Assembly (NCBI GenBank): GCA_963796275.1
Contig: CAWCKY010000001.1
Span: 128,001-192,000 of the forward strand
Source of the DNA: an uncultured Acidobacteriota bacterium
GTDB taxonomy: Bacteria > Acidobacteriota > Blastocatellia > RBC074
Reading direction: 5' to 3'
Length of the DNA stretch: 64,000 nucleotides
Positions within the stretch are counted from its first letter, which is position 1. Each line of letters begins with the position of its first letter. Below, one piece after another: positions 4,775 to 37,000 of this stretch. The notes beneath the pieces are model-generated. The model searched no databases and was not told where the DNA came from. It saw only the letters and a list, made by a program, of their open reading frames with translations. Both the position numbers and the translations under genes were made by a program.

Positions 4775-6109
4775 CTATGTTTGGAGGTCGGCCAGCCATC
4801 GCAGTGCTCGCAGTCCGGGCATAAAGCAATATTCACCACCCCGCGTGACGACAAACCGCGGGAGGCCCTGAAGGCGCCTGCGAACCGGTCGCCGTGGGAC
4901 TGTAAAGCTGGTGCCCTCTTCGTTCGATCCGACAATGGGATCCTTGGCATCCTCTCCCCCGAAGAAAACACCATCATTTATCCATTGAGACTGGACGAAC
5001 TCGAACTGCCGCCCCAGATGCGCTCCGACAAACGCGAACATCAACCCTCGATCGGCGCCATCGTCCTCCAGAACTCCTTCCGGGAGTGGCGGGCCATAAG
5101 CAGTTCCGCGCCGGATCATGCGGTGTATCCTGGCTACGCCGGCTACGGACGCGTCTCGCGGGTTTGTCCGCCTGATGTGCGAGCCGCCGGGAGTCTTGAA
5201 TCCTGCCGGGTCGTCCTCTTCATAGAGGAAATCGTTGTTGCGTCGCCTATCGGCGCCCAGTTCGGGATCGTCGTGGAACGGGCAGAGCGCCAGGGGCGCG
5301 CCGCTGCGCCAGCGCCCCATCGTCTTGGCCGCCAGTAGTTCTTCATCCTCAGGGCCGGTAGAGTTCGCCTTCAGGTATTCGCGAAATGCCGCCACACGCT
5401 GGTGTAGCTTGCGGAATACGACATAGGTCCCGTTGCGGCCCAGAACCTCGGGCTGAGTTATCTGAATGCCGCTTATCTCGTCTCTATAGCCAAGAACGAA
5501 TTCGCCCGCCTTAAGAGGTTGTTCCTTGGGATTGGTTCCAGGAATGCCGCTCCCTTCGATCGCCGGGTGGCTGATGCCGTCTCTGAATCCGAAGGGCTCC
5601 TTTTCGCTTGGCAGCGCATGGCAGTCCTGTCGCCAGATCGCAGTTATCCCCGGCAGTTCCTGGTACGCCTTCCGAGCGCGATCGAGTACCACCTTAAGTT
5701 GCTGAGCATCCGGGGAGACTGCGACGAGCACTACATGGACGTCCGGCGTCCCTAGCGGTTTTTCCCAGTTATCAGGACTGCTCTCGTTGGTATCTCCCAG
5801 CTCTTTCGCGCGCGCGGCCATTCCCTGCCGGAACTCCCAGGCGAAGCTGTCGAGCGAATCCTGCGGCACGCCGAGAGCCTTGAGACCCTGGTAGGTGAGC
5901 GCGACGCTCACCCAGGTATCGGCTAAAGGGCTGGTTGGATCAGCGGCCGAGGTCACGACTGCACTCACTCGCCGCATCAATTCCCGCCCCGCTTTGCGGT
6001 CGTCAATCCTGAACACAATGTAAGTTGCCGCATACGGAGTCGGCCGTGGGCGCAGGACTCCGCTTTGGATGTCGTCCAGTTCGAGCATGACGTTAGCTTC
6101 TCCGGTCAT
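4775..6109 (-). CDS. DyP-type heme peroxidase
   Basis: LDDIQ start, FGFRDGISHP (GxxDG), NGTYVVFRKLHQ, MGRWRSGAP, HIRRTNPR (proximal His), RMIRRG and QFEFVQ. ATG at 6109 with AGAAAGGA upstream. Confidence 0.9.
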   Translation of the reverse strand: MTGEANVMLELDDIQSGVLRPRPTPYAATYIVFRIDDRKAGRELMRRVSAVVTSAADPTSPLADTWVSVALTYQGLKALGVPQDSLDSFAWEFRQGMAARAKELGDTNESSPDNWEKPLGTPDVHVVLVAVSPDAQQLKVVLDRARKAYQELPGITAIWRQDCHALPSEKEPFGFRDGISHPAIEGSGIPGTNPKEQPLKAGEFVLGYRDEISGIQITQPEVLGRNGTYVVFRKLHQRVAAFREYLKANSTGPEDEELLAAKTMGRWRSGAPLALCPFHDDPELGADRRRNNDFLYEEDDPAGFKTPGGSHIRRTNPRDASVAGVARIHRMIRRGTAYGPPLPEGVLEDDGADRGLMFAFVGAHLGRQFEFVQSQWINDGVFFGGEDAKDPIVGSNEEGTSFTVPRRPVRRRLQGLPRFVVTRGGEYCFMPGLRALRWLADLQT

Positions 6110-6212
6110 ATATCCTTTCTTTCCGAATAGCCTCACTTTGCCGTGGCGATATTCTTCCAGAAGTTTTCCAGGCTCTCGTCACGAACAGTGTGGTGAAGTG
6201 TCATCTCGCAAG

Positions 6213-6617
6213 TCACTTGCTAGTTCCTTTCGTCCACGCCCAGGCTGTTATGCGCCACCCTTCGGCGAGTTTGCGAAGCGCCACCGTAAGGATCGCGCCA
6301 GTTTGCGTAACCTGTTGGCCGTGTACTTTGAACGTCATGGTCGCGGGAACAACCACATACGCGCTATCGCCGGTGACGTTGTTATGCAACGGCTCGCCCA
6401 GCGTGACGAAATAGTTTGAAGCACCGTGTTGCTCACCTTCAATCAGCACATCTCGGTACCAATCCTGAGAGACTGTTGGTCCTTGCCACACGTGCGGCGC
6501 CATGCCGTCAAGAATCGAGCCCGGGATAGCGAAAGTCGCAGCCATCGCCTTTCCGTCACCTTTGTTAAAGTTTTCGATGTATTGGTGTACTGTCGCCATC
6601 GGATCTGTCGTAGCCAT
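6213..6617 (-). CDS. SnoaL/NTF2-like fold protein
   Basis: 134 aa with VHQYIENFNKGD and C-terminal LRKLAEGWRITAWAW, typical of NTF2-like proteins. Confidence 0.75.
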   Translation of the reverse strand: MATTDPMATVHQYIENFNKGDGKAMAATFAIPGSILDGMAPHVWQGPTVSQDWYRDVLIEGEQHGASNYFVTLGEPLHNNVTGDSAYVVVPATMTFKVHGQQVTQTGAILTVALRKLAEGWRITAWAWTKGTSK

Positions 6618-6653
6618 TTCATTCTCCTTTTTGGATTGCGCTGAGTGATGTCC

Positions 6654-7674
6654 TCACTTCGCTGTTGCAATATTCTTCCAGAAGTTTTCCAGGCTCTTAT
6701 CCAGACCGAAAAGCGTGCTGAAGATCGTGGAATCCGCCAACAGCACATCGCCGGCCCGGTCGCCGCTCGGGGGCATCCAGAGAAACATGTTGAATTCCCG
6801 ATTTCCTGCTTCCGTGAACGGATGTGGCTTGGACATGTCGATCGGCTGTCTGGCGAGAACATGAATGGACTTGGTGTCATCAGTTGTCAGCGCATAGTGC
6901 GGCAGGTGCGAATGGAAGTTGAAGGTTGTAACCCCCTGGAGCCAGCCTCTGGTATCCAGATCCCTCGCAATGGACAAGGGAGCGAGCGTTTTGGTTCCCG
7001 GGACCAGCGCGGGACGCAGACCATAGCGATTCTCGATGGGTACTCCGATTCCCCTCATCAGGGATCGCGTGTACTTGCCGAAGCGTTGCTGGCGGGGCAC
7101 CAGAGCGTCGCCGTGGTGGTAGTACTCCATGTCGCGCACTTTCGGATCGTCTGAAACTCCGACCTCGTGATGTGGACCCAGGATCAGACAGGTTCCCTCG
7201 CGCTTGAGAAACTGCCGAAGGGCTTCGATCTCTTCCGGCGCGGCCTCCTGCTCCGTAACCATATGGTCCAAACCAAACACCAGCAGGGTGTCTGCGTCTG
7301 CCAGAACCCGCTCGTCGAGAGGAAGTTTGAACCCTGCCTGGTCGATCCGCTGAAACACCGGGACTACATGCCCGGTAGTATCACCGACGAACTGCTGGAA
7401 CGGCACCCAGGCCCAGAAGAACAATTCCAGGGCTCCCGTAATTCCTTGCTGGAACTGTAACCGATCAGACCACTCAGGCGCTTCATAGGCGGGCCATGCC
7501 ACCCGCCGAACCTCGGTCATCGTTGAGAATCGGTTATCCAGCTCGGCCGGATTCCTGTTAGCCTCAGCCGGGTAACTCCATGCAGATGTAGATACTCACT
7601 CGTCGCCGGCTCGGAGTATATTTCCGCGGCACATGGTTTTGGTTATATGTCCGTGCAGTTGTCGGTTGGCTCAT
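6654..7674 (-). CDS. Hypothetical protein of the DyP operon, one +1 frameshift near 7585
   Basis: ATG at 7674 behind an AGGAG RBS gives MSQPTTARTYNQNHVPRKYTPSRRRVSIYI. Another frame continues WSYPAEANRNPAELDNRFST into the listed 288-aa ORF. Total span 1021 nt = 3n+1. Confidence 0.65.
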
Positions 7675-12897: not shown

Positions 12898-13192
12898 CGC
12901 GAGCTTAAGGGCAAACGGCCAATCAGCTGGAACCGAAATGGCTCGACATCCTGTGACATTATCAAGGAACGTAATAGCCCAAGATAAAGGAACAATATGA
13001 ACGCTGCCGTCAATATCAAGGCTGCAAAACTGAAGTCCAAAAGGGCATCAATCCTCATCTCCTCCGACTGATCCACCATTCGAGACGATGGTCTGGATAC
13101 TGGGCGGCACTTTCTTATGGATTCGAACAAACACTACCCGGAACTAAATTACCGCCTTACCTGATTTCCCAGTTCGTGATCGAGGTCTGACC

Positions 13193-13597
13193 ATGGAAGC
13201 TCTTAGTATTGAAGATATCTTTAAAAACTTCGCTAGCTACGTCGCACTGGCTATGGAGATCATCGCGGTAGTGATCATCGCAATCGGCGCCGTTGAGTCT
13301 GTCATCAAATTGATGCGGCCTAATTACGATCAGCTCAGACCATTCGCCTGGAAGAAGGAGATATTTATCCGATTAGGTTCGTGGCTCCTGCTTGGACTTG
13401 AGTTTGCGCTGGCGGCCGACATCGTGCGGACTGCTATCTCGCCGACATGGGCACAGCTCGGACAACTGGCCACGATCGCCGCCATCAGGACATTTCTGAA
13501 CTTCTTCCTGGAGAGAGACGTGGAGAAGTTTTCAGAGAATGGGACAGTTGCGGAAGAGGCTGCGATAGCCAGGCGCGCACTCGAAGCGAAGGCATAA
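13193..13597 (+). CDS. DUF1622 family membrane protein
   Basis: LGSWLLLGLEFALAADIVRT..PTW..LGQLA.IAAIRTFLNFFL. Confidence 0.85.
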   Translation: MEALSIEDIFKNFASYVALAMEIIAVVIIAIGAVESVIKLMRPNYDQLRPFAWKKEIFIRLGSWLLLGLEFALAADIVRTAISPTWAQLGQLATIAAIRTFLNFFLERDVEKFSENGTVAEEAAIARRALEAKA

Positions 13598-14207
13598 CCG
13601 AGAACAAGTTGATAGCTAGAGGCTTTTCAATGAATTCAACGAAGATTGAAGAGATCGAGGACAAACATATCAACCATTTGCACTTGTCCGAACATATTGA
13701 GAGAAATTGACGGGGAGAAGATAACTTGTCAGGGACGGTTCGCATTGATTACTCGGAAGGATCCTAGGCTCCTGCCAATCCCACAATAACTCCAAAAAGA
13801 CACCACCCCACGATCCGCCATTCGATGGCCGGGCCGAGTTGTGTTTACCCGGGATCGACTCTACCACCATGATCCATTGCGCCAGCGGATCGACAGGGTT
13901 TTCGACTTCTCATTTCATCCATAATACCTAATGCTGGGCATGAAGCTTAAACAATGCTTTCTCAGAGGCTTGAGAGCTGGATAGAGGAGTAATGGAGCAT
14001 AATTTCGTTAAAAATAGAGAGCTAATAGAGGACATCTCAAGAATCTCGAAGATAGTATTCAGCCGTGAATAAGCCGAGGCAGCAGTCAAGTCTCGTCTTC
14101 GGTCTCATTCAATACACCAACGGATGAACAGAAGCTTATTCAATGGAAAAAGCTACTGGTTGCCGATGCAATTACAACTCTGGATTTGATTTTATAAGGA
14201 GAGTCTC

Positions 14208-15170
14208 ATGACAAAGGATATGAGGATCGATGCGATCGTGACATCGACTGGTAATGTAATTGATATGTTTGTGGAGGGCGCGCCTATTCTCAGATCGGAT
14301 CAGGACGAATCACTGGTCAGTGACTCGGTCGATTTGGGCTACGAAGATATGGAGGAAGTGATCGCCCCATATATCTCTTTCAACCATAACGAAGTTATCA
14401 TCAGTGACGAGGTTGATTTGGAAGCTGAGGAGTTGGAGGACGTGATCGCTCCCCTTATCAGTTTCAACCATAACGAAACTATCGTCTGCGACGAGGTTGA
14501 GTTGGACGCTGAGGAGCTGGAGGACGTGATCGCCCCGTATGTCTCTTTGAACCATAACGAAACTATGGTCTGCGACGAGATTGAATTGGACACTGAGGAG
14601 CTGGAGGACGTGATCGCTCCATTTATCACTCTCAACCATAACGAATCTATGGTCTGCGACGAGGTTGAGTTGGACGCCGAGGAGCTGGAGGACGTGATCG
14701 CTCCCGTTATCTCTTTCAACCATAACGAAACTATGGTCTGCGATGAGGTTGAATTGGACACTGAGGAGCTGGAGGATGTGATCGCCCCGTATATCTCTGT
14801 CAACCATAACGAGGTTATCGTCAGTGACGAGATTGAATTGGACGCTGAGGAACTGGAGGACGTGATCGCTCCGCATATCTCCGTCAACCACAACGAAGTT
14901 ATGGTCTCCGACGAGATTGAATTGGACGCAGAGGAGCTGGAGAACGTGATCGCTCCATTTATCACTTTCAACCATAATGAAACGATTGTCTGCGATGAGG
15001 TTGAATTGGACGCAGAGGAGCTGGAGGACGTAATCGCTCCCTATATCACTTACAACCATAACGAATCTATGGTCTGCGACGAGGTTGATTTGAACGCCGA
15101 GGAGCTTGAAGATCTGATCGCGCCCATGACCATGGATTACCAGGGGTCGCCAGTGATCACTTATAGCTAG
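14208..15170 (+). CDS. Acidic tandem-cassette protein; putative multi-core peptide precursor
   Basis: AAGGAG RBS. 320 aa with ten D-x-x-x-L-x-x-E-(E/D)-(L/M)-E-x-(V/L)-I-A-P units at 28-aa period; nine are followed by xxxx-NHNE-xxxx. First gene of an operon with TPR and M50 protease genes. Confidence 0.75.
   Translation: MTKDMRIDAIVTSTGNVIDMFVEGAPILRSDQDESLVSDSVDLGYEDMEEVIAPYISFNHNEVIISDEVDLEAEELEDVIAPLISFNHNETIVCDEVELDAEELEDVIAPYVSLNHNETMVCDEIELDTEELEDVIAPFITLNHNESMVCDEVELDAEELEDVIAPVISFNHNETMVCDEVELDTEELEDVIAPYISVNHNEVIVSDEIELDAEELEDVIAPHISVNHNEVMVSDEIELDAEELENVIAPFITFNHNETIVCDEVELDAEELEDVIAPYITYNHNESMVCDEVDLNAEELEDLIAPMTMDYQGSPVITYS
14322..15125 (+). repeat. 84-bp coding tandem repeat (9 full units plus a 10th leader-like part)
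   Basis: Recurrent gacgaggttgarttggacgcngaggagctggaggacgtgatcgcncc...aaccataacgaa every 84 nt, in frame, with synonymous variation between units. Confidence 0.95.
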
Positions 15171-15182
15171 CCCGGGCCTAAC

Positions 15183-16082
15183 ATGCAGAATTTCAGAAGG
15201 CATGTGGCGACAGATCCACCGAAGGCACAGGAATCTCTGCAAGTGCAGATTCGCGCTATTTGCGGCACGGCCGAAGCTTGGCGCATCGAGGGGCGTTACA
15301 GCGAGGCCGAGCCGCTCTACCGATGGGCGCTGGAGCTGGCGGAACAGAATTTTGGCCATGATCACCCGGAAGTCGCGATTATCAGCAACAATCTGGCCGT
15401 GCTCTGTAAATACACAGGTAAGTTCGATGAAGCTGAACGACTCTATCGGCGCGCATTCGCTTTGATGGAGCAAACGATGGGAACGGATGCCCGCCATATC
15501 GCCACGCTCTATCACAACCTCGGCGGATTGGAACACGCGCGTGGCCGATTCGCCGCCGGTGAACTTGCGGCACGCCGCTCTGTCGAGATTCGTGAACGCG
15601 CCCTCGGTCCTGATCATCTCTATGTAGCTGCCGATATCGCCGCACTGGCGGCCATTCTGGATGGGCAGGGGAAATATGCCGAATCAGAGCCGCTCTATCG
15701 AAGAGCATTGGCGATCTTTGAGCGAGAGTTAGGTCCTGAACATTACGAGATCGCCGTCAACCTCAACAATCTGGCCGCGCTTAAACAATCGCAGGGCTAC
15801 CAGCAGGAAGCTGAACGACTCTATCGCCGGGCTCTTCTGATAAAAGAAAAATTGCTGGGATCGAATCATCCGGACGTGGCGATGACGCTAAACAACCTGG
15901 CCGTCCTCTGCAAAACGCAATGCCGGTATGTCGAAGCGGAAGCCATGTACCGGCGCGCCCTGGCTATCTTCACGCAATCGTTAGGACCTGAGCATCCGAA
16001 GGTCGTGACCTGCCGCCGAAACTATGCGGGCCTGATGCTAAAGATGAGGCGGCAGAATTCTCAACTGAGTAGCGATCAATGA
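15183..16082 (+). CDS. Stand-alone tetratricopeptide-repeat protein (six 42-aa kinesin-light-chain-type TPRs)
   Basis: Repeats of type GxYxEAExLYxRALxIxExxLGxxHPxVAxxLNNLA. Starts 12 nt after the precursor stop and overlaps the next gene via ATGA. Confidence 0.9.
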   Translation: MQNFRRHVATDPPKAQESLQVQIRAICGTAEAWRIEGRYSEAEPLYRWALELAEQNFGHDHPEVAIISNNLAVLCKYTGKFDEAERLYRRAFALMEQTMGTDARHIATLYHNLGGLEHARGRFAAGELAARRSVEIRERALGPDHLYVAADIAALAAILDGQGKYAESEPLYRRALAIFERELGPEHYEIAVNLNNLAALKQSQGYQQEAERLYRRALLIKEKLLGSNHPDVAMTLNNLAVLCKTQCRYVEAEAMYRRALAIFTQSLGPEHPKVVTCRRNYAGLMLKMRRQNSQLSSDQ

Positions 16083-18688
16083 AGACCGATTACTGCGCCT
16101 ACCCGCCACTGATCGCCCCTGACGTGGAAATCTCGGAACAACACGAAGGCGACTGCACGGCTTTCATCGTCGGCTCCGCCTCGACAAGCCGTTATCTGTT
16201 GATACGTGACGCGGAATATCGAGTGCTGCAGATGCTCGGCGAAGGGCGCGCCCCCGCGGAAATCTGCCGGCAATTCAAACAGAGGTACGGCGGGACGCTT
16301 GCGCTCGCAACCCTCACGAAGTTTCTCTCCCGGCTCGATGATTACGGCATTCTCGCAGGCGATCGCGCAGCTGGACGTCAATCGCCGGGACAGCAGTTGA
16401 GCACGCAGTTTTACCTGCGCTTCAGCCTGTTCAACCCCGATCCGCTCTTCACGCGCGTGGTCGGTGTGTTGCGCTGGGTGTGGACGGCCCAGTTCTTTGC
16501 CGGCTCCCTCCTTCTGATGCTGATCGCGGCGGCATTGGCATTGATCAACCGAACCGAAGTCGCACAATACGGCAGTTACATTCTGCGTGAACATTATCTC
16601 GCGGTTATCTTAGCCGGATTACTGGTGGGTGTAACTCACGAATTCGCGCATGGGCTGACGTGCAAGGCTTTCGGCGGGCGGGCGACCGAAGTCGGCGGCT
16701 TGTTGATCTATTACTGCCTGCCGGCGCTCTACTGCAATGTTTCAGGTCTCCACCTGATCCCGCATCGCAGCCGGAGACTGTGGGTGATCGCCGCGGGGGT
16801 CTATTGGCAGCTTCTGGTCGGAACATTCGCGCTGCTGGCATGGTTGATGCTCGCACCATTTACGATCTTCTCGGACCTCGCCTTCATCTTCTTATGCGGC
16901 AGCGTGCTGAATGTCGCTTTCAACGGAAACCCGCTGATCAAGCTCGACGGATATTACTTCCTGAGTCAGTGGCTGCGAATGCCGAATCTCATGGATCGCG
17001 GACGCGCCTGGTGGCGCGATCTTTTGCGATCCATTTTTTTCGGTGCTCCGAGTGAGGATGAAAAACGTTACAGCCGGCGCGAGCAGGCGATTCTTGCGTC
17101 ATTCAGTTCGCTCTCGTTTACTTACACGCTGGGTCTGCGAGTGTTCATAGTGATCTTCGTCGGTTCATATCTGACTGACTGGTTTCACCTGCCGGGATTG
17201 TTGCTCACTGCCGTCCTGGCTCTCACCTATATGCGGCGGCCGTTCGAGGAGTTGATGACCGCGGCGGTCTCCGCTTTGCGGCCACTCGGTGCAAATTTCA
17301 ATCAGTTTTGGAAAGCAAAAATGTCAACTCAGAAGCAAACTTCAACGATCGATCCGGGACAGAACGAAAGCCCTGCGCGCCGGCTTCGGCGCAGGCTCAT
17401 ACCGCTGGCGATCGCCTCGTTACTTACCTTGATCTTCTGTCTCCCCTGGAACGCCTCGGTCGGTGCTAACGGCGTCCTCGTCGCCATTCCGGGACAGGAG
17501 ACGATTATTCGCGCCCCGGAGAGCGCGATACTATCCGAACTGCGCGTGCGCCCGGGCGACCTGACGGAGGAGGGCGCGGTCCTGGGCCGGATGAGCAACG
17601 TCGAACTCGATGAGCAGCTGGCGCACGTACAGATAGAGCTCGATCGGGCGATTACCGAATATGAGCGTTATATCGGGGAATTGCGGCTCCGCGAGGAATC
17701 GATTACTCGGGCCGAAGTGAACCTGCGGCAGCGCCAGAGAGATTACGAAGAGAGTGATTCCGAGAGGCGACAGATCGAAGAGAGGCGGCGCGCCGAGCCG
17801 GACCGGGCGAAGTATCTGGTTGCATATGGCGGTTCGTTCTCGTTACCTGCCGCCGATCATCAAATGGAAAACAGTGTCTCGACTTATCCGGCAGCCATCG
17901 CAGTCTTGCACTCGGATGCGGAGATGCGCCACGCGAGATTGGCAGAGGCCAGTCTCCAGCGCGACCGGACACGGATGCTTTATGCACAGGGCATCGCGCC
18001 GCGGAGCGAGCTGGATGGAGCTGAAACACGAGCTTCGACTCTGGCCATCGAACTCACAGCGGCGCGCCAGCGGCTCGATTCCGCTCTGGTCGAACACCGG
18101 CATCGCCATCTCGGTCTGACGACCGAATTGCTGCGGGCGCGCTCGGACGTTACGTCTGAGCGATTACAGACCGGGAATCTCCATAACCTGGTCCGAGCAG
18201 CGAGCGATCTCATCTCCACTCTCACCGCTCGCCGTGACCTGTTACGGGGCAGGCTGGCGCAGCTTTCACTCGTAACGCCGCGTGCCGGCGCTGTATTCGG
18301 TGAAGAGTTACCGCGTATGGTCGGACAATATTTCCCCAAAGGCTCGGAAATCTGCCGCGTGGCCGAAACGCGGCAACTGCTGGCGCGCATTCAGGTATCC
18401 GAGCGTGAGATCGGAGACATTCGCCCGGGCAATCCGGTCCGGCTCAAGGTGCGGGCGCACCCCGACCGCGTCTTTCGTGGCAGCGTCGCCAAGATCGGCA
18501 GCGAAAGCGAACTCGATCCGGGCGGGCAGGTAATCTATCGGGTGGAATTGATCATTGAAAATACGGACGATCTTTTGCGATCCGGAATGACCGCATTCGC
18601 TCGCGTCGATTTTGACCGCCGGATGATCGGGGGCATCCTGATCTACAAACTGAAGCAGGCACTGCGACCTGAATTATGGATGTTGTAA
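16079..18688 (+). CDS. Winged-helix/RRE-like + M50 (site-2) zinc metalloprotease + HlyD-type membrane-fusion protein (YydH-like)
   Basis: N-terminal YLLIRDAEYRVLQMLGEGRAPAEICRQF..LTKFLSRLDDYGIL; HEFAH zinc motif; NGNPLIKLDGYY (NPxxxxDG); several TM helices; IRAPESAILSELRVRPGD lipoyl half, coiled coil and VSEREIGDIRPGNPV beta-barrel. Confidence 0.85.
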   Translation: MKTDYCAYPPLIAPDVEISEQHEGDCTAFIVGSASTSRYLLIRDAEYRVLQMLGEGRAPAEICRQFKQRYGGTLALATLTKFLSRLDDYGILAGDRAAGRQSPGQQLSTQFYLRFSLFNPDPLFTRVVGVLRWVWTAQFFAGSLLLMLIAAALALINRTEVAQYGSYILREHYLAVILAGLLVGVTHEFAHGLTCKAFGGRATEVGGLLIYYCLPALYCNVSGLHLIPHRSRRLWVIAAGVYWQLLVGTFALLAWLMLAPFTIFSDLAFIFLCGSVLNVAFNGNPLIKLDGYYFLSQWLRMPNLMDRGRAWWRDLLRSIFFGAPSEDEKRYSRREQAILASFSSLSFTYTLGLRVFIVIFVGSYLTDWFHLPGLLLTAVLALTYMRRPFEELMTAAVSALRPLGANFNQFWKAKMSTQKQTSTIDPGQNESPARRLRRRLIPLAIASLLTLIFCLPWNASVGANGVLVAIPGQETIIRAPESAILSELRVRPGDLTEEGAVLGRMSNVELDEQLAHVQIELDRAITEYERYIGELRLREESITRAEVNLRQRQRDYEESDSERRQIEERRRAEPDRAKYLVAYGGSFSLPAADHQMENSVSTYPAAIAVLHSDAEMRHARLAEASLQRDRTRMLYAQGIAPRSELDGAETRASTLAIELTAARQRLDSALVEHRHRHLGLTTELLRARSDVTSERLQTGNLHNLVRAASDLISTLTARRDLLRGRLAQLSLVTPRAGAVFGEELPRMVGQYFPKGSEICRVAETRQLLARIQVSEREIGDIRPGNPVRLKVRAHPDRVFRGSVAKIGSESELDPGGQVIYRVELIIENTDDLLRSGMTAFARVDFDRRMIGGILIYKLKQALRPELWML

Positions 18689-18699
18689 AGGTCGAAATA

Positions 18700-19095
18700 T
18701 CATTGTTTTACGAGAGGCGAGATGTAGAGGCGTTCCTGTATGACCTCATACACCGCAGGCACTAGCTCTCGGCTAGCGGCCAGCTTAAAGACATAGCCCT
18801 TTGCTCCCGCGGAAATTCCTTCTTCTAACATACTCCGATCGTTATGCATGGTGAGTAATATGATCTTCGCCTCGAAGTCTTCCTCGACTATTCTCATGGT
18901 CGCTTCGATGCCGCTCATTTCGGGCATATTGATGTCGGCTATGATTACGTCAGGTTTGAAATTCTTGACCGCTTGGAGCAAATCTCGCCCGTTCTGGACT
19001 ATTGCTACAACTTCGAACTCTGGCTGCAGTACATCCTTGATGAGGCTAAGCATCTCCGCGTGGTCATCGGCCACTACTATTCTGATTTTACTCAT
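18700..19095 (-). CDS. Single-domain response regulator (NarL-type receiver, no HTH)
   Basis: IVVADDH, PDVIIADINMPEMSGIEA, ILLTMH, GAKGYVFK; ends right after the receiver domain. Confidence 0.85.
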   Translation of the reverse strand: MSKIRIVVADDHAEMLSLIKDVLQPEFEVVAIVQNGRDLLQAVKNFKPDVIIADINMPEMSGIEATMRIVEEDFEAKIILLTMHNDRSMLEEGISAGAKGYVFKLAASRELVPAVYEVIQERLYISPLVKQ

Positions 19096-19191
19096 TGGGA
19101 CCATCCGAAGTAGGTGGAATCCTTGCATCTGCCATTTGACATAAAATCTTGCAGGCAATGCACTATGCCATCCTCGACCGGGTATCCGATG

Positions 19192-19455
19192 TCACTCACC
19201 TATGCTCTTGCTCCGATCCCATACCAGGCTGGCAATTAACATCATCAGTTCGGCAGGTTCGACTGGCTTGGTAACATGCATGTGGAAGCCTGCACTGAGT
19301 GCGCGCAACTAACCTTCTACTCGCCATCGCCGTGAGTGTTATCGTCGGCGTCTGCTACGACATCTTGACTCTTCGCTCTGCCTCGAGTCTCCTAACACTT
19401 TTCATCATCTCGCAACCATCTTTACCCAGCACATATGAGCACATCAAGTTGTTCG
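19192..19455 (-). pseudogene. Degraded C-terminal receiver domain of a hybrid histidine kinase
   Basis: Minus strand reads LDVLIC..GKDGCEMMKSVRRLEAERRVKMS*QTPTITLTAM..LRALSAGFHMHVTKPVEPAELMMLIASL, collinear with the end of the 20080-23457 protein but with a stop and frameshifts. Confidence 0.7.
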
Positions 19456-20079
19456 CTGCAAGATCGATCCATACTCTATGCCTTCACTCGCCGCCTCGAT
19501 CGTGCCGCCTTGCAATTCGCCCAGATACTTTGCCACCGCTGCGTATAGAGCATGCGCATAGCAACTGCCACATCTGAAGACTTCTACCATTCCTATCGCG
19601 TGTGATATTATGAATTTGGGGAAAATTAAATCTTAATTGCGAGCAGTTTTTCTGTCCTATCTCAAGGCTATTTTGACCTTGCTGGTCCAGTTTTAGTCTG
19701 CGTATTACGGTCAGATATCATTCCTTTATTTAGGACACTTTTCTCGATCTTTTCCCTTTTTCCAATAGATAACTTCATCGGGAGCGATCTTAATGCTCTT
19801 GCCCATTAGGAGTAAGTTTAGATAAAAACCCAGCGCCTACTTCGTGTGGAGGGTGTTCATTGTTGTATGTAATTGGATTGATACCCTAGAGGCATGCTTA
19901 ACCTCGTGGAAGAAGTGATTATAACAACGGCTTCATTCAATCAGCATAGCATCATTGGATTTACCCCTCCTCCCGGTTCAGATAAAGGCAAGCGCCAGCC
20001 AGTGTGACTGACGTTCGCTACATTGTTGGACCTGCTCATGCGCTTAGATTAGGCATTACCTCACAGAAAGGACCCTCTG

Positions 20080-23000
20080 ATGACCCACTCAATTTTGGAG
20101 GCGAATCCGGGAGATTTGAGGAATTTGCAAATCAAGATAGAGAGTCGTTTCGGCGTTCTACCGAACTTCTTCCGGCTGGCTCCTAAAAGCCCGGAGGTCA
20201 CGGCGAACCTCTGGGAGTTTGCGCAGTTCGCTTACCTGGATAATCCACTTCCATCGCTATTCAAGGAACGGTTATTCGTCTATCTCTCTCGCTTTTGCAA
20301 AGCGCGCTATAGCGTCGCGCGGCACGTCGGCTTCCTAGTCGGGCTGGGGCATCCCTCAGGCGACAACCAGTGTCCGATCCAGACCATCGAAGAAATCATG
20401 CGACTTCTCCGGCGTCCGTTCCCACGGGCCGAGCGCCTGAAACCGCACGTTTCTGGTCTCGCCGCCCGTAAGGCACCTCTGGCTAAATTGCCGAAGCCTG
20501 ATTCCGCCCTTGAAGAGACTATCTTTGCGTGCGCCGCTCATGTCTTCTTGCAGACACCAGACGCGCCCCGATGCCTCGACGCGATCAATCGCGCCTTTGG
20601 CGAATCGCGGTTCGAATACCTGATGACGTTTCTCGCATTCGTCCATACCGCCCATTACTGGACCTCGGTTCATACGGAATTGGAAGTTGAAGAGGACATC
20701 CAGCGGCTTTTGGCGACCTACGAAGCACTAGCCGAATGTCTGCTGAACGACCCGGAGTCCGGGACTTGTGAAATCAGTCAGAAGCTGCTCGACGAGTTGG
20801 CGTCACTGCGGGAGACCAGGGAGCGCCACAATGAATTATTGCAAGCGCATCAGACAGTACGCGAGAGCGAGGTGCAGGGCCGACGAACCAATGCGGAACT
20901 CGCCGGGCGTGTGGCTGAACTTCAAGAGCTCACTGTTGAACTACAGAATGCGCGCCGAGCCGCGCTCAATCTGATGGAAGACGCGATCCAGGCGAAAGCT
21001 GCGTTGGCGGAGTCCGAGGAGCGTTATCGCTCGCTGGTCTCTGTCATCACTGACGTCTCCTGGACGACCGATGTGGCAGGCCGGTTCGCCACGCCGCAGC
21101 CCGCGTGGACGGCTTACACAGGTCAGATCTGGAATGAATTGCGGGACTTCGGCTGGGTCGACGCCCTGCATCCCGAAGACCGAGAGAACGTCGGGGTCAC
21201 ATGGCTGCACGCCGTCAAATCACGATCCCTTTACAAATCACATGGACGGCTCTGGCACGCGCCGAGCCAGCAGTACCGCTACTTCGAGGCGCGGGCGACG
21301 CCGTTGTTCGACCCCGACGGCGGCGTGCGAGAATGGGTCGGCTCCTGCACGGATATTCACGACCGCAAAATGGCCGAAACGGCGTTGAGTGAAAGCGAGG
21401 AACGGTATCGGCGCCTGCTGGACAAACTGCCGGTTGGGGCCTATACCTGCGATGCCGATGGATCGATAACATATTTCAATCAGCGTGCGGTCGAAGTGTG
21501 GGGGCGCACCCCGAAATTGAATGACCCCGTGGAACGTTTCTGCGGCTCATATAGGCTTTATTCGCCTGACGGAGCGCTGATTCCCCACGATCGATGTTGG
21601 ATGGCGGTCGCGATTAAGGAGAAAAAGGTATACGAGGGACATGAGATCGTGATCGAGCGTCCGGACGGCTCCCGGCTGACAGTCCTGGTCCATGTCAACC
21701 CGTTTTACAATGAGGCTGGGAAATTGCTCGGAGCGATTAACATATTGGTGGACATCACCGACCGCAAGCGAGCCGAAGCAGCGATGGCTCAAATGGCGGC
21801 CATCGTCGAATCGTCAGATGACGCCATCATTAGCAAGGATTTGAATGGAATCATTGCGAGCTGGAACAAAGGTGCGGAAAAGCTGTTTGGTTACACGGCG
21901 GCGGAAGTCATCGGCAAACCGGTGACAATTCTTATTCCTCAGGATCGGGTGGACGAAGAGCCGCGAATTCTCGAACGGCTCACGCGCGGCGAGCAGGTTG
22001 ATCAGTACGAAACCGTGCGACGGCGCAAAGATGATAGCGAGGTTGACATTTCGCTGACGATCTCACCCATTAGAGACAAGACAGGAAAAGTTATCGCCGC
22101 GTCGAAAATTGCGCGCGACATCACCGAACGCAAGCGCAGCGAGATCGAAAGAGAAGAACTGTTGCTCAAGGAATCGGCGGCCCGCGCCGAGGCGGAAGCC
22201 GCAAATCGCAGTAAAGATGAATTCCTGGCCGTCGTCTCGCATGAGTTACGCTCGCCCCTGGGCGCGATCCTCGGTTACAACAGTATGCTGCGCGAGAAAC
22301 CGTCCGACAAGACGCAACTGAATTCATACTGCGACATCATTGAGCGCAACGCCAAAACGCAACTGCAATTGATCGAAGACCTGCTCGATACTGCCCGCAT
22401 CGTCAGCGGCAAGCTGCGGCTGGAATTGCGCCCCCTGGACATCACCCCCCTGCTCGCCGACGCGCTCGATGTGGTGCGCCCGGCGATAGAGGTCAAAGGT
22501 GTCAAATTGCGGATTCGGGAGGGCGGAGTAGAGAATGAAAATGGCGCGACGCGGGAAGAACCCGCAATCTTGTTGGGTGATGCCGCCCGGTTACAGCAGA
22601 TCATCTGGAACCTGCTCTCGAATGCGATTAAGTTCACGCCCGCCGGCGGGTTTGTCGAATTGCGTGCCGAACGCGGCGAAGGACATATCCGCATCATCGT
22701 CAGCGACACCGGCAAAGGCATACAGCCGGAAGTCCTGCCTCATGTATTCGACCGCTTCCGACAGGCCGATTCATCAAGCTCGCGGCGGTACGACGGCCTT
22801 GGTCTGGGTCTCGCGCTGGTGAAGGACTTGGTCGAACTGCATGGCGGTAAGGTCGAGGCGGCGAGCGAAGGCGCAGGACGTGGCTCGAGGTTCACCGTCA
22901 CACTGCCGTTGGCGGCACCAAGCGAATTGGGCGCTGTGGAGCCTAAGGCCCTGGCATTGGCCGTTGGCGCAAATGGCGAGGCGCAGATCCGAGGCGGGAT

Positions 23001-31052: not shown

Positions 31053-34000
31053 TTAAGCCCTGTCTTGCCCACCGAGAATCACGCGTACGTAGTGTAGTTG
31101 CGCGTCGTCAGATAAGTCGATTTCGGATGATTGCTGAATCTTTCCGTCGATTTCCAATTGGGCAACACCGCGACAGATGCCGTGCGGATTTTCGACCTTG
31201 ATGTGATAGCGCGTGGCGCCTCGGCGCCCATGCTTATAGAGAATCTCGAATTCACGCCAGCCGCGCGGAATGGATGGGTCAATTCGCAAGCGGTCGCCGT
31301 TGAGTTGAAAGCCGAGAATTGATTCGAGTCCGGCACGATACATCCAGGCTGCCGAACCTGTGTACCAGGTCCATCCGCCGCGTCCGGTGTGTGGCGGCAT
31401 GGCGTAGATGTCGCCTGCCACTACATACGGCTCGACGCGATATTTATGCAGCCCGGCGCGCGTCGAGGAATGGTTGATCGGATTAAGCAGTGCGAAAAGT
31501 TCACCAGCACGGTCGCCGTCTCCGAGCATGGCGTAAGCAATCAACGTCCACAACGCCGCGTGCGTGTACTGCCCGCCATTTTCTCGCACGCCCGGCACAT
31601 ACCCTTTGATATAGCCAGGGTTCAGCGTTCCACGGTCGAAAGGCGGCGAAAAGAGGATCACGATCCCGTCGCCGCGACGTATCAGATATTCTTCGACGGC
31701 CGCCATCGCACGGCGTCACGCGCTGCTTGTCCGCCGCGCCGGAGATCACGCCCCAGGACTGCGCGATCGAATCGATGCGACATTCATCGTTCTGCGCCGA
31801 GCCGAGCGGCGTGCCATCATCGAAATAAGCGCGACGGTACCAGTCCCCATCCCAGGCCTGCTCCTCGAGCGCGGTCTTCAAGTTCATCGATGTGCGCCCG
31901 ATACTGCGCTGCGCGCTCCCGATCCTCGCGTCCATCGCAGAACGGCGACAAAGTCTTCGAGCGTGGCGTAGAGAAACCAACCGAGCCAGACGCTCTCACC
32001 TTTGCCGCCGTTGCCGACGCGATTCATGCCGTCGTTCCAATCCCCTGCCCCCATCAACGGCAGGCCGTGTTCACCAGTCGCCAAACTGCGATCGATCGCG
32101 CGCAGGCAGTGTTCATAAAGAGTGGCCTGCTCAGATGAAACCTGCGGATGCAAGTACGAGTCGTCCTCGCTCTTCGGCCAAAAGCGGGGCTTCGAGAAAC
32201 GGAATCACTTCATCAAAGATTGCGATCGTCTCCGGTCACGCGGATGTAGAAGCTCGTGACATAAGGCAGCCATAACAAATCGTCGGAGATACGCGTGCGG
32301 ACGCCGCGATCAGTCGGCGGATGCCACCAGTGTTGGACGTCGCCTTCTTTGAATTGATGCGCGGCGGCAAGCAGAATCTGCGCGCGCGTCAACTCCGGAC
32401 TGGCATAGACGAGCGCCATCACGTCTTGCAGTTGGTCGCGAAAACCGTACGCGCCGCCCGATTGATAGAACGCCGAGCGCGCCCAGATGCGGCACGCGAG
32501 CGTTTGATATAACAACCAGCGATTGAGCATCAGGTCCATCGCCGCATCGGGCGTGCGGACTTCGACGGTCGACAACGTCTCGTCCCAGTAACTCGCGACG
32601 CTCTCGATGGCTTCGTTGACCGCTGACGTTTTGAGATAGCGCACGACGAGTTCGCGGGCATTTTCCGCGCTCTCGCTCTCGCCCAGCAAAATGATGATTT
32701 CGCGCGATTCGTCAGGCGCGAGTTCAACGACGCTCTGTAAAGCCGCGCACGGGTCGAGTCCCGCGCCAAACCGATCATCGAGCCGCGCGCGACGCAATGC
32801 CGCCGGGTGCGCCGGACGCGCCGTTACGTCCCAGGAAAGATTTGCGGTCGCAGGTCGCGCTGGCGGGAGCCGGATTCATCGCGGTGAAAACCACGCGATT
32901 CGCAAACTCGTTGTTGTAGGCATTGCGCGCAAATACTGCGCCAGTCTCCTTGTCGCGTTCGGTGACGATGAACGGCGCGGACTTTTCGCGAGTGATGCCA
33001 AGCACCAACTCGTTGTATGTCGTGACTGACACTCGCCGGCGCCGGCCGGTGCGATTATGCAGGCGCAATGTCGAAATCTTCACCGGAGCGTCCAGCGGCA
33101 CTAAGACCATCAACTCCTGTGCGATGCCATGACTGGTATGTTCAAAAATCGTGTAGCCCTGTCCGTGCCGGATGACATAAGGCTGCGCCTCGCGCACCGG
33201 CAGCGGCGTCGGCGTCCAGACAGTTCCGGTATCTTCGTCGCGCAGATATATCGTTTCGCCGGGCGGATCGCTCACGGCATCATTTGACCAGGGTGTTAAT
33301 CGATTCTCACGGCTGTTGACAGACCAGGTGTAACCCGCACCCGTCTCAGTTACTAGAAACCCGAAATCTCTGCCCATTAGCGATCACGTTTGTCCACGGC
33401 GCGGGCGTCCACTGCCCTTCATTCAAGACCGTGACATACTCGCGCCCTTCCCGTGCAAAGCCGCCAAGACCATTGAAGAATTGCAAATCGGAAACGCTGA
33501 TTGCCTGCTCCTCCGGATAAGTTTGCGCAGGAGAGCGCGGCATGAACGGCGCGGGCGGATCGTTATCTTCAACCGGACGCCGGGCGAGTTGTTCTTCGAG
33601 CGTCCCGCGTTCGGGGACCAGGACGACACGCGCGACGGTATGCAACAGAATCTTGTCCTCATCCGGCATGATGTCTGTGCGGCGCACATAAACACCGCCC
33701 GGTTCGTCCTGTAACGTTTGCAGGCCCGTCGAACGAATCAGCGTCTGTATCTCCTCTTGTAACAACTGCAAATAACTGGGCGGATGGTCATTGAGAATGA
33801 CCAGGTCAATGCGCAGACCCTTGAGACGAAGGTATTCATGACCGCGTAGTACCTGCCGGACCATGTCCAAATCATCAGTCACGCTGATTCGCACCAGCAC
33901 GATCGGAAGGTCGCCGCTGATGCCATATTTCCACAAATTGGATTGCGTCTTTTGATTCAGAGTCAGGACCTTTGAGCGTGGGCGCAATGAATTATCGGAA

Positions 34001-37000
34001 TACAATACGCGTCCGGCGAGGCGCTGGAATAAGTGCGCCTCGCGCGCTTCAATGTTCAAGTGGCGCATCTGGATCTGCGCATTCGTCCACGCGAGGCGTT
34101 CTACGCGTTTGAAGATATTGACGTCGTGATACTTGTCCGCAAGCATCAGAATATGTTCACGCGAGTAAGCGACAGCAGTCGAAAAAGTGATGCGCGCCGT
34201 CTCGTTGGGCTTCAAGCGCACGCGCTGGCGGAGGCTGAAAATGGGATCGAGAACCGCGCCGACGGTGTTTGACAGCGGGTGGTCTGCAATCACAGCGAGC
34301 GGCGCCCGGGTGTCGTGACCTCGACCGAGAAACCGATTGCGACTCGTTTCATATTGCACCGCGCCAACAGCGTCGCCCTCGATAACAACCGTGTGAACGG
34401 CGAATATGAGTGTGTCGTTCAGCGAACGCGGGCGGCGACTCGCAATGAGCGAAGTCTCTTCACGAATGAACTCCGTCTCGATGAAAAGATTGCTGAATGC
34501 CGGATGCGCGATGTCTGCAGCGGGCGAAGCCAGCACGACTTCGGCATAGCTCGTCAATTCGATTTCACGCACGCGCGATGAGCGATTCGTTACTGTCACG
34601 CATCGCACCTCGGCGTTGTCTTCAGGAGAGACGACGATGTCCGTCTGCGTCAGGATGCCCGCGTCGAGACGCTTGAAGACCGCACGTTCTTCCATAAACG
34701 TCACTTCATAATTCTGCGAAGCGCGCGCCGATGGTTGATGGCCGGTTGACCAGATTGCGCCGGTGCGCACGTCGCGCATGTAACAAAAGCTGCCCCAGTC
34801 GTCGCAGGTCGAATCTTCGCGCCAGCGCGTGACGGCCTGGTTTCCGCACATCGAATAACCCGCGCCTGCCGATGTCACCATCACCGAATAAGTGCCGTTT
34901 GAAAGCAACTGCGTGCGCGGCGTCGGCAGATTTGGCGACTCGTAACTGACGGCGAGCGGCGCGGTCAGGGTGTTGACGATGCGGCCCATCAACACTTCTT
35001 CGGTGCGGAACTGCGCGATGGGGGCGCCTTGTGGAATGCGCTCTTGTAATAATAACTCCGTGGCCTGAATCAGCGGATCGGCGTGAAACCGCTTTTGCAT
35101 CACATCATCCTGCAGAAGGTTGTCGAGCGCGACGAGGCTCATGCCCTGATGGTGCGCCATGAACGAATGGATGACAACCTCCTGTTGGTTCTGCGGTATC
35201 CGCTCCGGCGTGTAATCAATAGCTTCGTAAAAACCGTAACGGGCGAGCGCGCCGACCTGCGCCAGCTGTTGCATGTTTTGCAGCGCGGCAGCAGGCGCGA
35301 TCATAGCTGCCAGAAACGTCGCATATGGCGCGATCACCAGGTCTTCGCTCAAACCACGTTTCAAACCAAGGCCCGGCACGCCGAACGGACCGTATTGATA
35401 ATTGAAATGCAGGTCGCGCGCGTTGTACGCCGACTCGGAAATGCCCCACGGCACGCCGTGTTTGCGCCCATAAGCGATCTGTTGGGCGACGACGGCTTTG
35501 TAGGTCTGGTCAAGCAATGTGTCCGGATAGTCGCGCGTGACCAGGAGGGGCATCAGATATTCAAACATCGTCGCCGTCCATGACACGAGCGCGCGCCCCG
35601 TGCCGTCAACCTGAGTCAATTGCCGGCCGAGCCGAAACCAATGCTCCTGCGGCACGTCACCCTTCGCAATGGCGACGAGACTGGTGAGACGCGATTCCGA
35701 TGCGAGCAAATCATAAAAAGATTGATCGCGGCGGCCATCGGAGACGTTGTAGCCGATGATGAACATTTTGCGCTCATGATCAAACAGGAACTGAAAGTCC
35801 ATCGATTCGATCATCTCATCGCATGAGTGCGCGAGCGCGCCTGTTCGCCCCAAGAGTTCGGTTGACGCACGCAAAGTGCTTTCGATCGATGTGGTGAGCG
35901 TGTCGAGTCCTCTGAAAAGCGCATCGCGTTCGGATCTTTCAGGAGATTCGGCCAGTTCGAGAGGGCCAAATTCGGCCGACAGCGATTTGATTTCACGAAC
36001 AGCCTGCGCGCAATGCTCGTTAATTTCGCCGACGATTGGCACGCGACTGAATGTTTCAGCAATCTTCTGCCAGCGCCCGACAAACTGCGGCGCGGCGCGT
36101 TCGATGAGCGGCGTGAGATGCTCGGCCAGCGGTGCATTCCAGGAGATCAGCGTATTGAAATCGCGCCGCGCCTCCCGCGTTTGATTGAGCAGCGAGGCGG
36201 TCCAGAAATGAAACTCGCCGAAACCCTCCGCCGTGTCCGCTCCCTGTCCTTGTTCAAGCGCGTGCGCGATATCTTTGACTTCGCCTATCCGCGCCGCCAG
36301 TTCATCGAAGAACCTCGCCCACTCGCCCAAGTCATCCGGCCCGCCCTTCATCGTCTCGATCAGCGTGACACACACCTCAATCTCTCGCTTCAATTGTTTA
36401 ATGGTGACAACCTGCGTCCGCTCTTTGATCGTGCCGAGCCTTTTCGTCTCTTCGCGTAATAGCGTGAGCGTGTCCGTCAGCCCCTGCAGCAACCGCGCGT
36501 CGAATAATTTTTGTTCTGGTAGTTCAATCGCCGCTTGTTTGACGGCAATTAAATGAGCGGCGAGATTTCCACTATCAACCGTCGAAATATACTGCGGTAT
36601 GAGCGGCTTAAGCGTTGTTGTGTCATACCAGTTGAAGAAATGCCCTTGAAATTTCTCCAGCTTACCGAGCGTCACAAAAGTCAGTTCAAGGCGTTCGACG
36701 GTTTCAAGCAGCCCGACATAACCTAGATCGCGCGCCGCGATAGTCGAAAGCAGATGCAGGCCGATGTTCGTCGGTGACGTGCGGTTGGCGATGATCGGGT
36801 GGGGGTCTTCCTGGAAATTATCAGGCGGCAACCAGTGGTTGTGATCGCCGACGAATGTTTCAAAGAAACGCCACGTGCGCCGCGCGATCAGTCTCATCGT
36901 CTGTCGCCCTTCACTGCTCAGTTCACGACTCGATTCCGTACTCGAACGTCTGGCACGGCTGACGAAAGAGGCGAGAAATGGCGACGCCGCCCAGGCCATC

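Follow-up and report, generated by a model that had tools for sequence, protein, structure and literature searches.

A candidate leader-guided peptide-release and export unit built on a multi-cassette precursor in an uncultured Acidobacteriota bacterium

In cyanobactin PatE and in the multi-core microviridins, a single gene encodes several short variable cores that have conserved recognition sequences on both sides. The enterococcal and streptococcal pheromones are short, mostly hydrophobic, unmodified peptides that the M50 protease Eep cuts and that tetratricopeptide repeat (TPR) receptors sense. Here, we describe three adjacent genes (genes 1 to 3; Table 1) in a 64,000-nucleotide stretch of DNA, referred to as the window, from an uncultured soil bacterium of the Acidobacteriota (contig CAWCKY010000001.1, positions 128,001 to 192,000). 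Gene 1 is a candidate precursor made of tandem cassettes, gene 2 encodes a TPR protein, and gene 3 is a fusion of an element like those that recognize peptides made on ribosomes and modified after translation (RiPP recognition element; RRE), an M50 metalloprotease, and a HlyD-type adaptor. We propose that the three genes probably form a leader-guided peptide-release and export unit in which leaders are bound by the RRE, cuts are made after Ala-Pro (AP) motifs, a further step takes place at NHNE motifs, and the products are exported. This idea was suggested by homology, by conserved linkage, and by the pattern of fixed flanks around variable cores.

Passages of the daptide preprint describe a site-2 protease that has an RRE fused at its N terminus, together with a precursor that carries the motif ELExMEAP. 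According to the same passages, the RRE-dependent intramembrane peptidase MpaP removes the leader, and an alanine scan of MpaA numbered the motif E-8, L-7, D-6, P-5, M-4, E-3, A-2, and P-1. Because this numbering places P at -1, the daptide cut is located directly after AP. L-7 and M-4 are described there as essential for modification by MpaB/C, an effect that the authors attribute to contacts with the RRE of MpaB, which is distinct from that of the peptidase. When the motif numbering published in the preprint was applied to gene 1, E-L-E-D-V-I-A-P fit the daptide leader register. In the case of the epipeptides, passages of a review state that EpeP, an M50 protease, is believed to cleave its peptide and also to export it.

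Genes 1 to 3 are co-oriented on the plus strand; 12 nt separate the first from the second, and the second and third overlap in an ATGA. Gene 1 consists mostly of a repeat with an 84-nt period (9.2 copies, 84% matches, score of 980; Tandem Repeats Finder). An earlier note on this DNA, which was made from the sequence alone, had described ten 28-aa cassettes; our parse did yield 10 [VL]IAP motifs, but only nine full 28-aa cassettes, and the 14-aa tail that follows the tenth AP lacks NHNE. The count in the note is therefore correct to within one. The cassettes have the form x-[IV]-[ST]-x-NHNE-x-x-V-[CS]-DE-[VI]-[ED]-L-x-x-EELEDVIAP, and their cores are YISF, LISF, YVSL, FITL, VISF, YISV, HISV, FITF, and YITY. 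In the N-terminal region that precedes them, the segment ..EGAP ILRS DQDE.. may be a cassette that has decayed. The protein is very acidic, with 93 Asp and Glu residues versus 3 Lys and Arg residues (net charge of about -90). AGGAG motifs similar to the one in front of gene 1 were also found 5' of most related cassette open reading frames (ORFs).

The gene 1 repeat is constrained at the protein level in the plus-strand frame. Conserved cassette columns differed by synonymous changes only, as in P28 (26 synonymous and 0 nonsynonymous of 36 pairs) and A27 (20 and 0), whereas core columns 1 and 4 showed 29 and 28 nonsynonymous pairs, respectively, versus 0 to 1 synonymous pairs. The opposite strand also contains long ORFs (14310-15617 and 14339-14971), which are by-products of the repeat. 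A Pfam match of gene 1 to Ovate (E 5.9e-11, with no single stretch passing) was also rejected; it was taken to be noise that adds up when an acidic repeat is compared with a plant family. A search of the ESM Atlas with gene 1 gave no usable match.

Gene 2 matched TPR_12 in five stretches (E 1.2e-64) and TPR_10 in six stretches (Pfam), and no domain outside the TPR families, including any DNA-binding or effector domain, was detected with Pfam and NCBIfam. The idea that the TPR protein is a basic polyanion binder was dropped, as the isoelectric points of its orthologues ranged from 5.5 to 9.5 and gave no consistent signal.

The N terminus of gene 3 was modeled with AlphaFold from an alignment of 24 gene 3 N termini. 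The model had three strands (residues 16-23, 26-33, and 38-43) followed by three helices (residues 44-53, 59-70, and 76-88), with a mean predicted local distance difference test score (pLDDT) of 75.5. The best 15 PDB matches found with Foldseek were all RRE proteins (TbiB1, TfuB1, TigE, ThcOx, PqqD, TglHI, and CteB). For TbiB1 and TfuB1, whose structures include leader peptides, the matches had a probability of 1.00, E values of 1.3e-3 to 4.2e-3, and target-normalized TM scores of 0.69 to 0.72. The middle of gene 3 carries both intact M50 motifs in hydrophobic segments, and residues 12 to 392 matched the NCBIfam family daptide_HExxH (NF041824) at E 4.6e-50; a weak match to YydH/LiaK (NF058609) was also obtained (E 1.8e-8). 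The C-terminal half matched two Pfam families above their cut-offs, HlyD_D23 (E 2.1e-12) and HlyD_3 (E 1.8e-11), and it also matched TIGR01843 and TIGR01730. A complex was also predicted for the RRE, a 53-residue piece of gene 1 that spans two cassettes, and, as the scored partner, the TPR protein; this prediction, which was run without controls, gave a score of 0.02 versus a mark of 0.32 and speaks neither for nor against binding. Taken together with the ORF list, these results agreed with the earlier note on the order, spacing, and overlap of the three genes, on the presence of nothing but TPRs in gene 2, and on the fusion of an RRE-like N terminus, an M50 protease with intact HEFAH and NPxxxxDG motifs, and a HlyD adaptor in gene 3.

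The locus resembles daptide loci in that gene 3, like DapP/MpaP, joins an N-terminal RRE to an intramembrane M50 protease and in that gene 1, like DapA/MpaA, has an acidic leader ending in AP. The earlier note had mentioned the daptide RRE-M50 fusion and the ELExMEAP motif, with the same spacing as ELEDVIAP, and both were found in the passages of the preprint. In contrast to the daptide precursor, which has an invariant C-terminal Thr and one hydrophobic helical core, gene 1 ends in ...PVITYS (its listed relatives end variably) and has many cassettes, mostly with four-residue cores, which are followed by NHNE. Furthermore, the gene 3 protease carries a HlyD adaptor and pairs with a TPR protein, and the gene trio is found in Acidobacteriota, whereas daptides are found in Actinomycetota or Bacillota. 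Genes of the DapB (DUF-RRE), DapC (alcohol-dehydrogenase type), DapD (aminotransferase), and DapM (methyltransferase) types were absent from the vicinity of genes 1 to 3, that is, from the window flanks and from the conserved gene clusters of the 18 linked loci described below. Because no daptide-type modifying enzymes are present, the locus is not a daptide locus; it lacks two features that define such loci, the C-terminal Thr and the DapB/C/D/M enzymes.

Similar comparisons were made with the other systems. The epipeptide locus (YydH/EpeP) also uses an M50 membrane protease that matures a ribosomal peptide, but its precursor has one core, its protease has no HlyD fusion, and neither a radical-SAM epimerase nor an ATP-binding cassette (ABC) transporter was seen near the trio (window flanks and conserved clusters). 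Gene 1 is similar to the cyanobactin-type precursors in layout only; recognition here would occur via the RRE-M50 fusion, and neither subtilisin proteases of the PatA/PatG type nor ATP-grasp or heterocyclase enzymes are present at the trio locus. Unlike the receptors of Eep-processed pheromones (RRNPP), gene 2 has no DNA-binding or effector domain, and the candidate substrates of gene 3 are acidic cassettes instead of signal peptides, in a Gram-negative host and with a HlyD-type adaptor. This adaptor shares domains with HlyD, MacA, and EmrA, but it is fused to a protease and is not encoded beside an ABC, major facilitator superfamily, or resistance-nodulation-division pump. The earlier note knew of no described family with such an architecture, and our full-text literature searches found none; specifically, an M50-HlyD fusion with a cassette precursor was not described in the texts searched, which did not extend to the supplements of the daptide and RRE-Finder papers.

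A search of 1.84 billion cluster representatives yielded 188 relatives of gene 1 at E <= 0.001. At least one full cassette was present in 138 of the best 150 of these 188 representatives, which had a median length of 85 aa; 48 carried one cassette, 68 carried two, 17 carried three, four carried four, and one carried six. The nine full cassettes of gene 1 thus formed the longest array among those examined. The names of four cluster members that we looked up (P0245, P0121, P0128, and P0001) were not informative.

Cassette statistics were compiled from 124 cassettes in 31 ORFs at 19 loci. Since the search pattern fixed the residue classes at positions -4 to -1 and at four follower positions, only the remaining positions were informative. 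The stretch between AP and [NQ]HNE ranged from 3 to 12 residues, with 4 residues in 87 cassettes and 6 residues in 17 cassettes, and the 124 cassettes had 106 distinct cores, which were rich in Gly, Leu, Ala, Ile, and Pro. Positions that the pattern left free were nearly fixed (E-6 in 123 cassettes, E-8 in 118, E-9 in 120, and L-12 in 122), and position -7 was variable in the wider family (L in 40, A in 34, and M in 25). The smallest cassettes, at locus L036, comprised a four-residue core, NHNE, and a 14-residue leader. In most of the 31 listed ORFs, the last unit consisted of core-NHNE(T) and 2 to 7 residues before the stop codon; the exceptions were the tails TPSIPIPPPF(H/R)NH and G[LI]PLI and the tail of gene 1 itself. 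As these terminal units retain NHNE with no leader after it, NHNE belongs to the preceding core.

The gene 1 search also returned P0245, a 431-aa protein from outside the window that has a signal-peptide-like start and about a dozen ...C-S-P-x-x-C-G-x-NHNETLVRD... repeats, but no AP leaders and no Pfam match. Thus, the NHNETLV-D follower also appears behind Cys loops in another kind of repeat protein, one that seems to be secreted.

The source genome (9.46 Mb in 7 contigs) contains a single cassette locus and a single fusion gene, and no other cassette or NHNET-repeat gene was found in it. Nine of its 17 [NQ]HNE[TSAV] matches lie inside gene 1, and a scrambled control motif gave 6 matches. In a phylum-wide sample, no cassette match was detected in any of 400 other genomes, which indicated that the cassette family is narrow.

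Of the 8000 candidates scored for gene 3, 491 were database relatives at E <= 0.001. Among the 120 relatives listed, those with an organism name came from Blastocatellia or Acidobacteria; a common Joint Genome Institute label for the listed relatives was "putative peptide zinc metalloprotease protein". We fetched 49 loci with gene 3. In 18 of them (the linked loci), one to four cassette ORFs, a TPR orthologue, and the fusion were found in this order on one strand, with the TPR orthologue (41 to 72% identical to gene 2) between the cassette gene and the fusion. In four more loci, the TPR gene was at a contig edge, and in 11 loci the flank was too short to judge; one of these 11, L040, had 1.4 kb of flank with no TPR gene. 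Where both could be seen in the fetched loci, the TPR gene and the cassettes were always together.

The linked loci also clustered in a quick maximum-likelihood tree of 43 full-length fusions, from which six loci with a gene 3 ORF that was missing or shorter than 700 aa were left out. One clade of 23 fusions (Shimodaira-Hasegawa-like approximate likelihood ratio test support of 99) contained 16 linked loci, 3 loci with a cut flank, 4 loci that could not be evaluated, and no unlinked loci. The unlinked loci formed two other groups, and the linked locus L027 was on a long branch beside them. Several metagenome-assembled genome records in the set are titled Heliobacteriaceae/Heliomicrobium, Acidimicrobiia, or Actinomycetota (L009, L014, L016, L017, L024, L030, and L049), and their fusions nest among those of Blastocatellia; mislabeled or misbinned records seem a more likely explanation than gene transfer.

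A similar association was observed in an even class-level sample of 401 genomes. A cassette match was found in 36 of these genomes, and the window's own family, with 86 genomes, accounted for 31 of them; a gene 3 match was found in 95 genomes. The linkage of the repeat protein to an M50-HlyD gene, on which the reading in the earlier note depended, was seen here as well: 33 of the 36 cassette genomes had a gene 3 homologue (G188 only weakly), and in 24 of the 36 the cassettes shared contig and strand with the fusion and were located directly upstream of it. Two genomes flagged as unpublished (G199 and G244) are among those counted; when they are left out, there are 34 cassette genomes, 31 with both genes and 23 with adjacent genes.

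From the observed anatomy, homology, linkage, and flank/core pattern, we infer how the unit would work. Gene 1 would be a multi-core precursor in which each cassette provides a leader (E-L-x-x-E-E-x-E-x-V-I-A-P), a hypervariable core, and an NHNE(T) follower. The cytoplasmic RRE of gene 3 (residues 1-100) would bind each leader motif. If the daptide register applies, the M50 domain would cut directly after the Pro of AP, and ten such cuts would generate units that start with a variable core. A second processing step at or near NHNE, which is suggested because NHNE is conserved after terminal cores that have no following leader, might be carried out by an enzyme encoded outside the operon or by gene 3 itself; this step would free mostly hydrophobic peptides of 4 to 8 residues. 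The HlyD-type half would then take the products out via an outer-membrane channel. A part in handling the precursor is suggested for the TPR protein by the start/stop coupling of its gene to gene 3 and by the fact that it strictly co-occurs with cassettes; its most likely role would be to hold or present this long polyanion.

Several results weighed against the proposed unit. The sequence matches of the RRE were weak (Pfam PqqD at E 0.044, which is below the cut-off, and TbiB1 at E 0.7), and no Foldseek match of the RRE model to the PDB reached E <= 0.001 (best E of 1.3e-3); the case for an RRE therefore rests on the fold and on the homology to the daptide protease. The score of gene 3 against daptide_HExxH was 170.8 bits, below the family cut-off of 300, and this makes it a relative and not a member of that equivalog family. 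The match to Pfam Peptidase_M50 (PF02163) was also weak and below the cut-off (E 0.022). No energizing transporter, outer-membrane factor, second protease, or modifying enzyme was conserved beside the trio; for the pump and outer-membrane factor that would partner the HlyD domain, the search covered the conserved neighbor clusters and the window flanks and not the rest of the genome. In addition, 16 of the 49 fetched loci had at least 1.8 kb of upstream sequence with neither a TPR gene nor cassettes, and 62 of the 95 genomes with a gene 3 homologue had no cassette match. The fusion must therefore have other substrates or roles, and it is older and broader than the cassette system. Finally, three of the 36 cassette genomes (G048, G053, and G260) had no RRE-M50 homologue even when the N-terminal half was used as the query, in searches that covered G053 minus 8000 bases and a G260 assembly that is 80% complete. 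G048 retains the cassette gene, the TPR gene, the sigma factor gene described below, and an intact kinase gene.

An AlphaFold model of gene 1 itself, built from a 13-row alignment, also ran counter to a precursor that is cut. The model was all-beta and solenoid-like, with long strands stacked repeat upon repeat (mean pLDDT of 62.9 and predicted TM score of 0.59), and 121 residues had a pLDDT of 70 to 90. It is compatible with gene 1 being an uncut, folded acidic repeat protein, either a beta-solenoid or a secreted polyanion, while gene 3 is employed elsewhere, for example, in the regulated proteolysis of a membrane regulator. The many gene 3 homologues without cassettes would fit this idea, as would the best Foldseek matches of the model, which were beta-helix proteins but not significant, and locus L001, which has an extracytoplasmic function (ECF) sigma factor gene and a possible anti-sigma gene upstream. 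However, no residue of the model reached a pLDDT of 90 and no PDB match reached E <= 0.001; 116 of the best 150 representatives have one or two cassettes, which is too few for a solenoid; and core length varies from 3 to 12 residues even within arrays. The charge/hydropathy value of gene 1 (0.489 versus a boundary of 0.514) placed it, narrowly, on the disordered side, and its net charge is strongly negative. Moreover, neither a membrane segment nor an anti-sigma domain was detected in gene 1 with Pfam and NCBIfam, and its leader motif matches that of the daptide protease substrates in the passages of the preprint. The evidence for a solenoid was thus weak, and we considered the folded-protein explanation very unlikely.

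Two other explanations keep the AP cut but change what follows it. If this cut is the only one, the products would be acidic peptides of 22 to 28 residues that run from a variable head through NHNE to an acidic tail ending in AP, and they might be anionic or metal-binding peptides. The operon does encode only one protease domain, with no second peptidase conserved nearby, and NHNE, which contains a His, might have a function within the product instead of serving as a site of recognition. On the other hand, the last unit of most precursors has no acidic tail, so a single cut would yield unlike products from one gene, and the acidic stretch lines up with the leader of the daptides, a part that is discarded according to the preprint passages. 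This explanation seemed unlikely to us. The second possibility is a true RiPP pathway with one or more tailoring enzymes encoded elsewhere, in which NHNE or the core would be modified or cyclized, for example, via the new N terminus created by the AP cut. RRE domains are typical of RiPP pathways, and the NHNETLV-D sequence of P0245 may point to a separate NHNE-reading enzyme, possibly one located outside the cytoplasm. However, no tailoring enzyme was conserved within 8 kb of the trio in the 18 linked loci or found in the window, and the source genome has one cassette locus only. We regarded a modified product as rather improbable, and the leader-guided release and export unit remained the explanation that we favored.

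The neighborhoods of the linked loci contained two further recurrent genes. Twelve of the 18 linked loci have an ECF sigma factor gene within 8 kb, which is usually oriented divergently to the precursor genes and whose product matched TIGR02999 above the cut-off (E 4.7e-67). A gene for a Ser/Thr kinase was likewise found within 8 kb in 12 of the 18 loci; the kinase has about 890 residues, a membrane segment, and, at its C terminus, a TPR region. The sigma factor gene was also located beside the cassettes in two genomes that lack the fusion, G048, where the kinase is intact, and G053, where it is in pieces. The 64-kb window lacks this sigma/kinase pair, and nine such sigma genes are found elsewhere in the source genome. 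Because the sigma factor and the kinase recur near linked loci and cassettes, one may speculate, with considerable doubt, about a peptide signaling circuit. In such a circuit, a bar code of up to ten tetra- to octapeptides would be released by the RRE-M50-HlyD protein without a separate pump, the periplasmic TPR region of the transmembrane kinase would sense the peptides outside the cell, and the kinase would control the ECF sigma factor, which is encoded divergently from the precursor genes. If so, this would be a kind of circuit not known in Gram-negative soil bacteria, and the hypervariable cores would provide strain-specific signals.

Some additional observations were made at individual loci. 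At L001 (3623-5228), a different ECF sigma factor gene and a 295-aa ORF with a Cys/His-rich N terminus are co-oriented upstream of the cassette gene; the 295-aa protein is a possible anti-sigma factor, and it had no NCBIfam match. At the G053 locus (L050; G053:C1:1174000-1192000), the kinase gene beside the cassettes is split into three ORFs (5134-7256), a second sigma gene is truncated (117 aa), and there is no TPR gene or fusion, and the locus looks as if it is decaying. One clade of unlinked fusions, about 42 to 46% identical (L026, L028-L035, L038, L042, L045, L046, and L048), has no TPR gene or cassettes and is found in a conserved, housekeeping-like context. On the upstream side are genes like glgC and like those for pseudouridine glycosidases, and downstream are genes for a sigma-54-type activator and for an acyltransferase. 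No convincing small ORF of the ELE..AP type was found upstream of the unlinked fusions (16 loci, 700 nt each, three frames). Two to three tandem paralogues of a secreted-looking protein of about 325 aa are located on the minus strand, opposite to the fusion, upstream of the unlinked fusions at L006 (3658-7067) and L007 (4489-6892). In the ESM Atlas, clusters with M50 and adaptor families, a few of them with PqqD, came from Pseudomonadota, Planctomycetota, and Acidobacteriota; these are leads only.

Inverted repeats such as GAGAGCGAAAG...GCTCTC and GGGGGCGAGACGAC...GTTTCGCTCCC recur about 60 to 110 nt 5' of cassette ORFs (L013, L017, L023, L024, and L027; L017/L021/L023/L024) and might represent conserved hairpins of a leader RNA. 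No obvious counterpart was seen 5' of gene 1 in the window. An Rfam search of positions 13000-20200 gave no match at E <= 0.1, and promoter and terminator scans were at or below the shuffle expectation.

In the window, genes 1 to 3 are flanked by globin, SBF, DUF202, and DUF1622 genes upstream and by response regulator and PAS kinase genes downstream. The receiver, PAS kinase, and CheB-CheR-PAS neighbors listed in Table 1 were not conserved beside the trio in related loci.

Table 1. Positions of genes 1 to 3, their parts, and other features in the window
Feature	Position	Strand	Basis or remark
Shine-Dalgarno sequence AAGGAG	14196..14201	+	Read from sequence; 6 nt 5' of gene 1 ATG
Gene 1, candidate multi-cassette precursor, 320 aa	14208-15170	+	ORF list; homologues with same AP-core-NHNE cassettes
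Gene 1 N-terminal region, aa 1-54, ending at first leader motif ...EDMEEVIAP	14208..14369	+	Sequence parse
Nine 28-aa cassettes: 4-aa variable core, NHNE, spacer, leader motif E-L-D/E-x-EELEDVIAP	14370..15125	+	
Gene 1 C-terminal 14-aa tail MTMDYQGSPVITYS, after tenth AP, without NHNE	15126..15167	+	
Gene 2, TPR protein, 299 aa, TPR_12/TPR_10 type	15183-16082	+	Pfam
Gene 3, RRE/M50 metalloprotease/HlyD-type adaptor fusion, 869 aa	16079-18688	+	Start overlaps gene 2 stop
RRE-like domain, aa 1-100 (structured aa 16-88)	16079..16378	+	AlphaFold, Foldseek, weak Pfam PqqD
M50 (site-2 protease type) membrane domain, aa ~130-400	16466..17278	+	Motifs, hydrophobic segments, NCBIfam
HEFAH, aa 187-191	16637-16651	+	Intact, in hydrophobic segment
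NPLIKLDG (NGNPLIKLDG = aa 282-291)	16928-16951	+	Intact, in hydrophobic segment
HlyD-type periplasmic adaptor with own membrane anchor (aa ~436-463), coiled coil, beta-barrel	17384..18685	+	
Stand-alone receiver domain	18700-19158	-	
PAS hybrid histidine kinase, 1125 aa	20080-23457	+	
CheB-CheR-PAS fusion, 1227 aa	24336-28019	+	
ORF of 1868 aa, largest in the window	33346-38952	-	

Judging from the sequences, what would be new at this locus is RRE-guided M50 processing that acts on tandem mini-cores and is fused to an export adaptor. If the proposed unit is correct, the RRE-guided M50 leader peptidase, which has so far been tied to daptides, would be extended to a tandem multi-core precursor, and very short peptides would be released with no tailoring enzyme in the locus. 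The fusion of the protease to an adaptor of the tripartite-exporter type would point to a self-contained device that both cuts and exports. The fixed flanks (ELExxVIAP 5' of the core and NHNET 3' of it) provide a handle for searches and a possible scaffold for the display of short-peptide libraries. For the Acidobacteria, which are abundant soil bacteria with few characterized peptide products, the finding would add a family of no fewer than 138 precursor clusters, whose distinct cores number in the hundreds.

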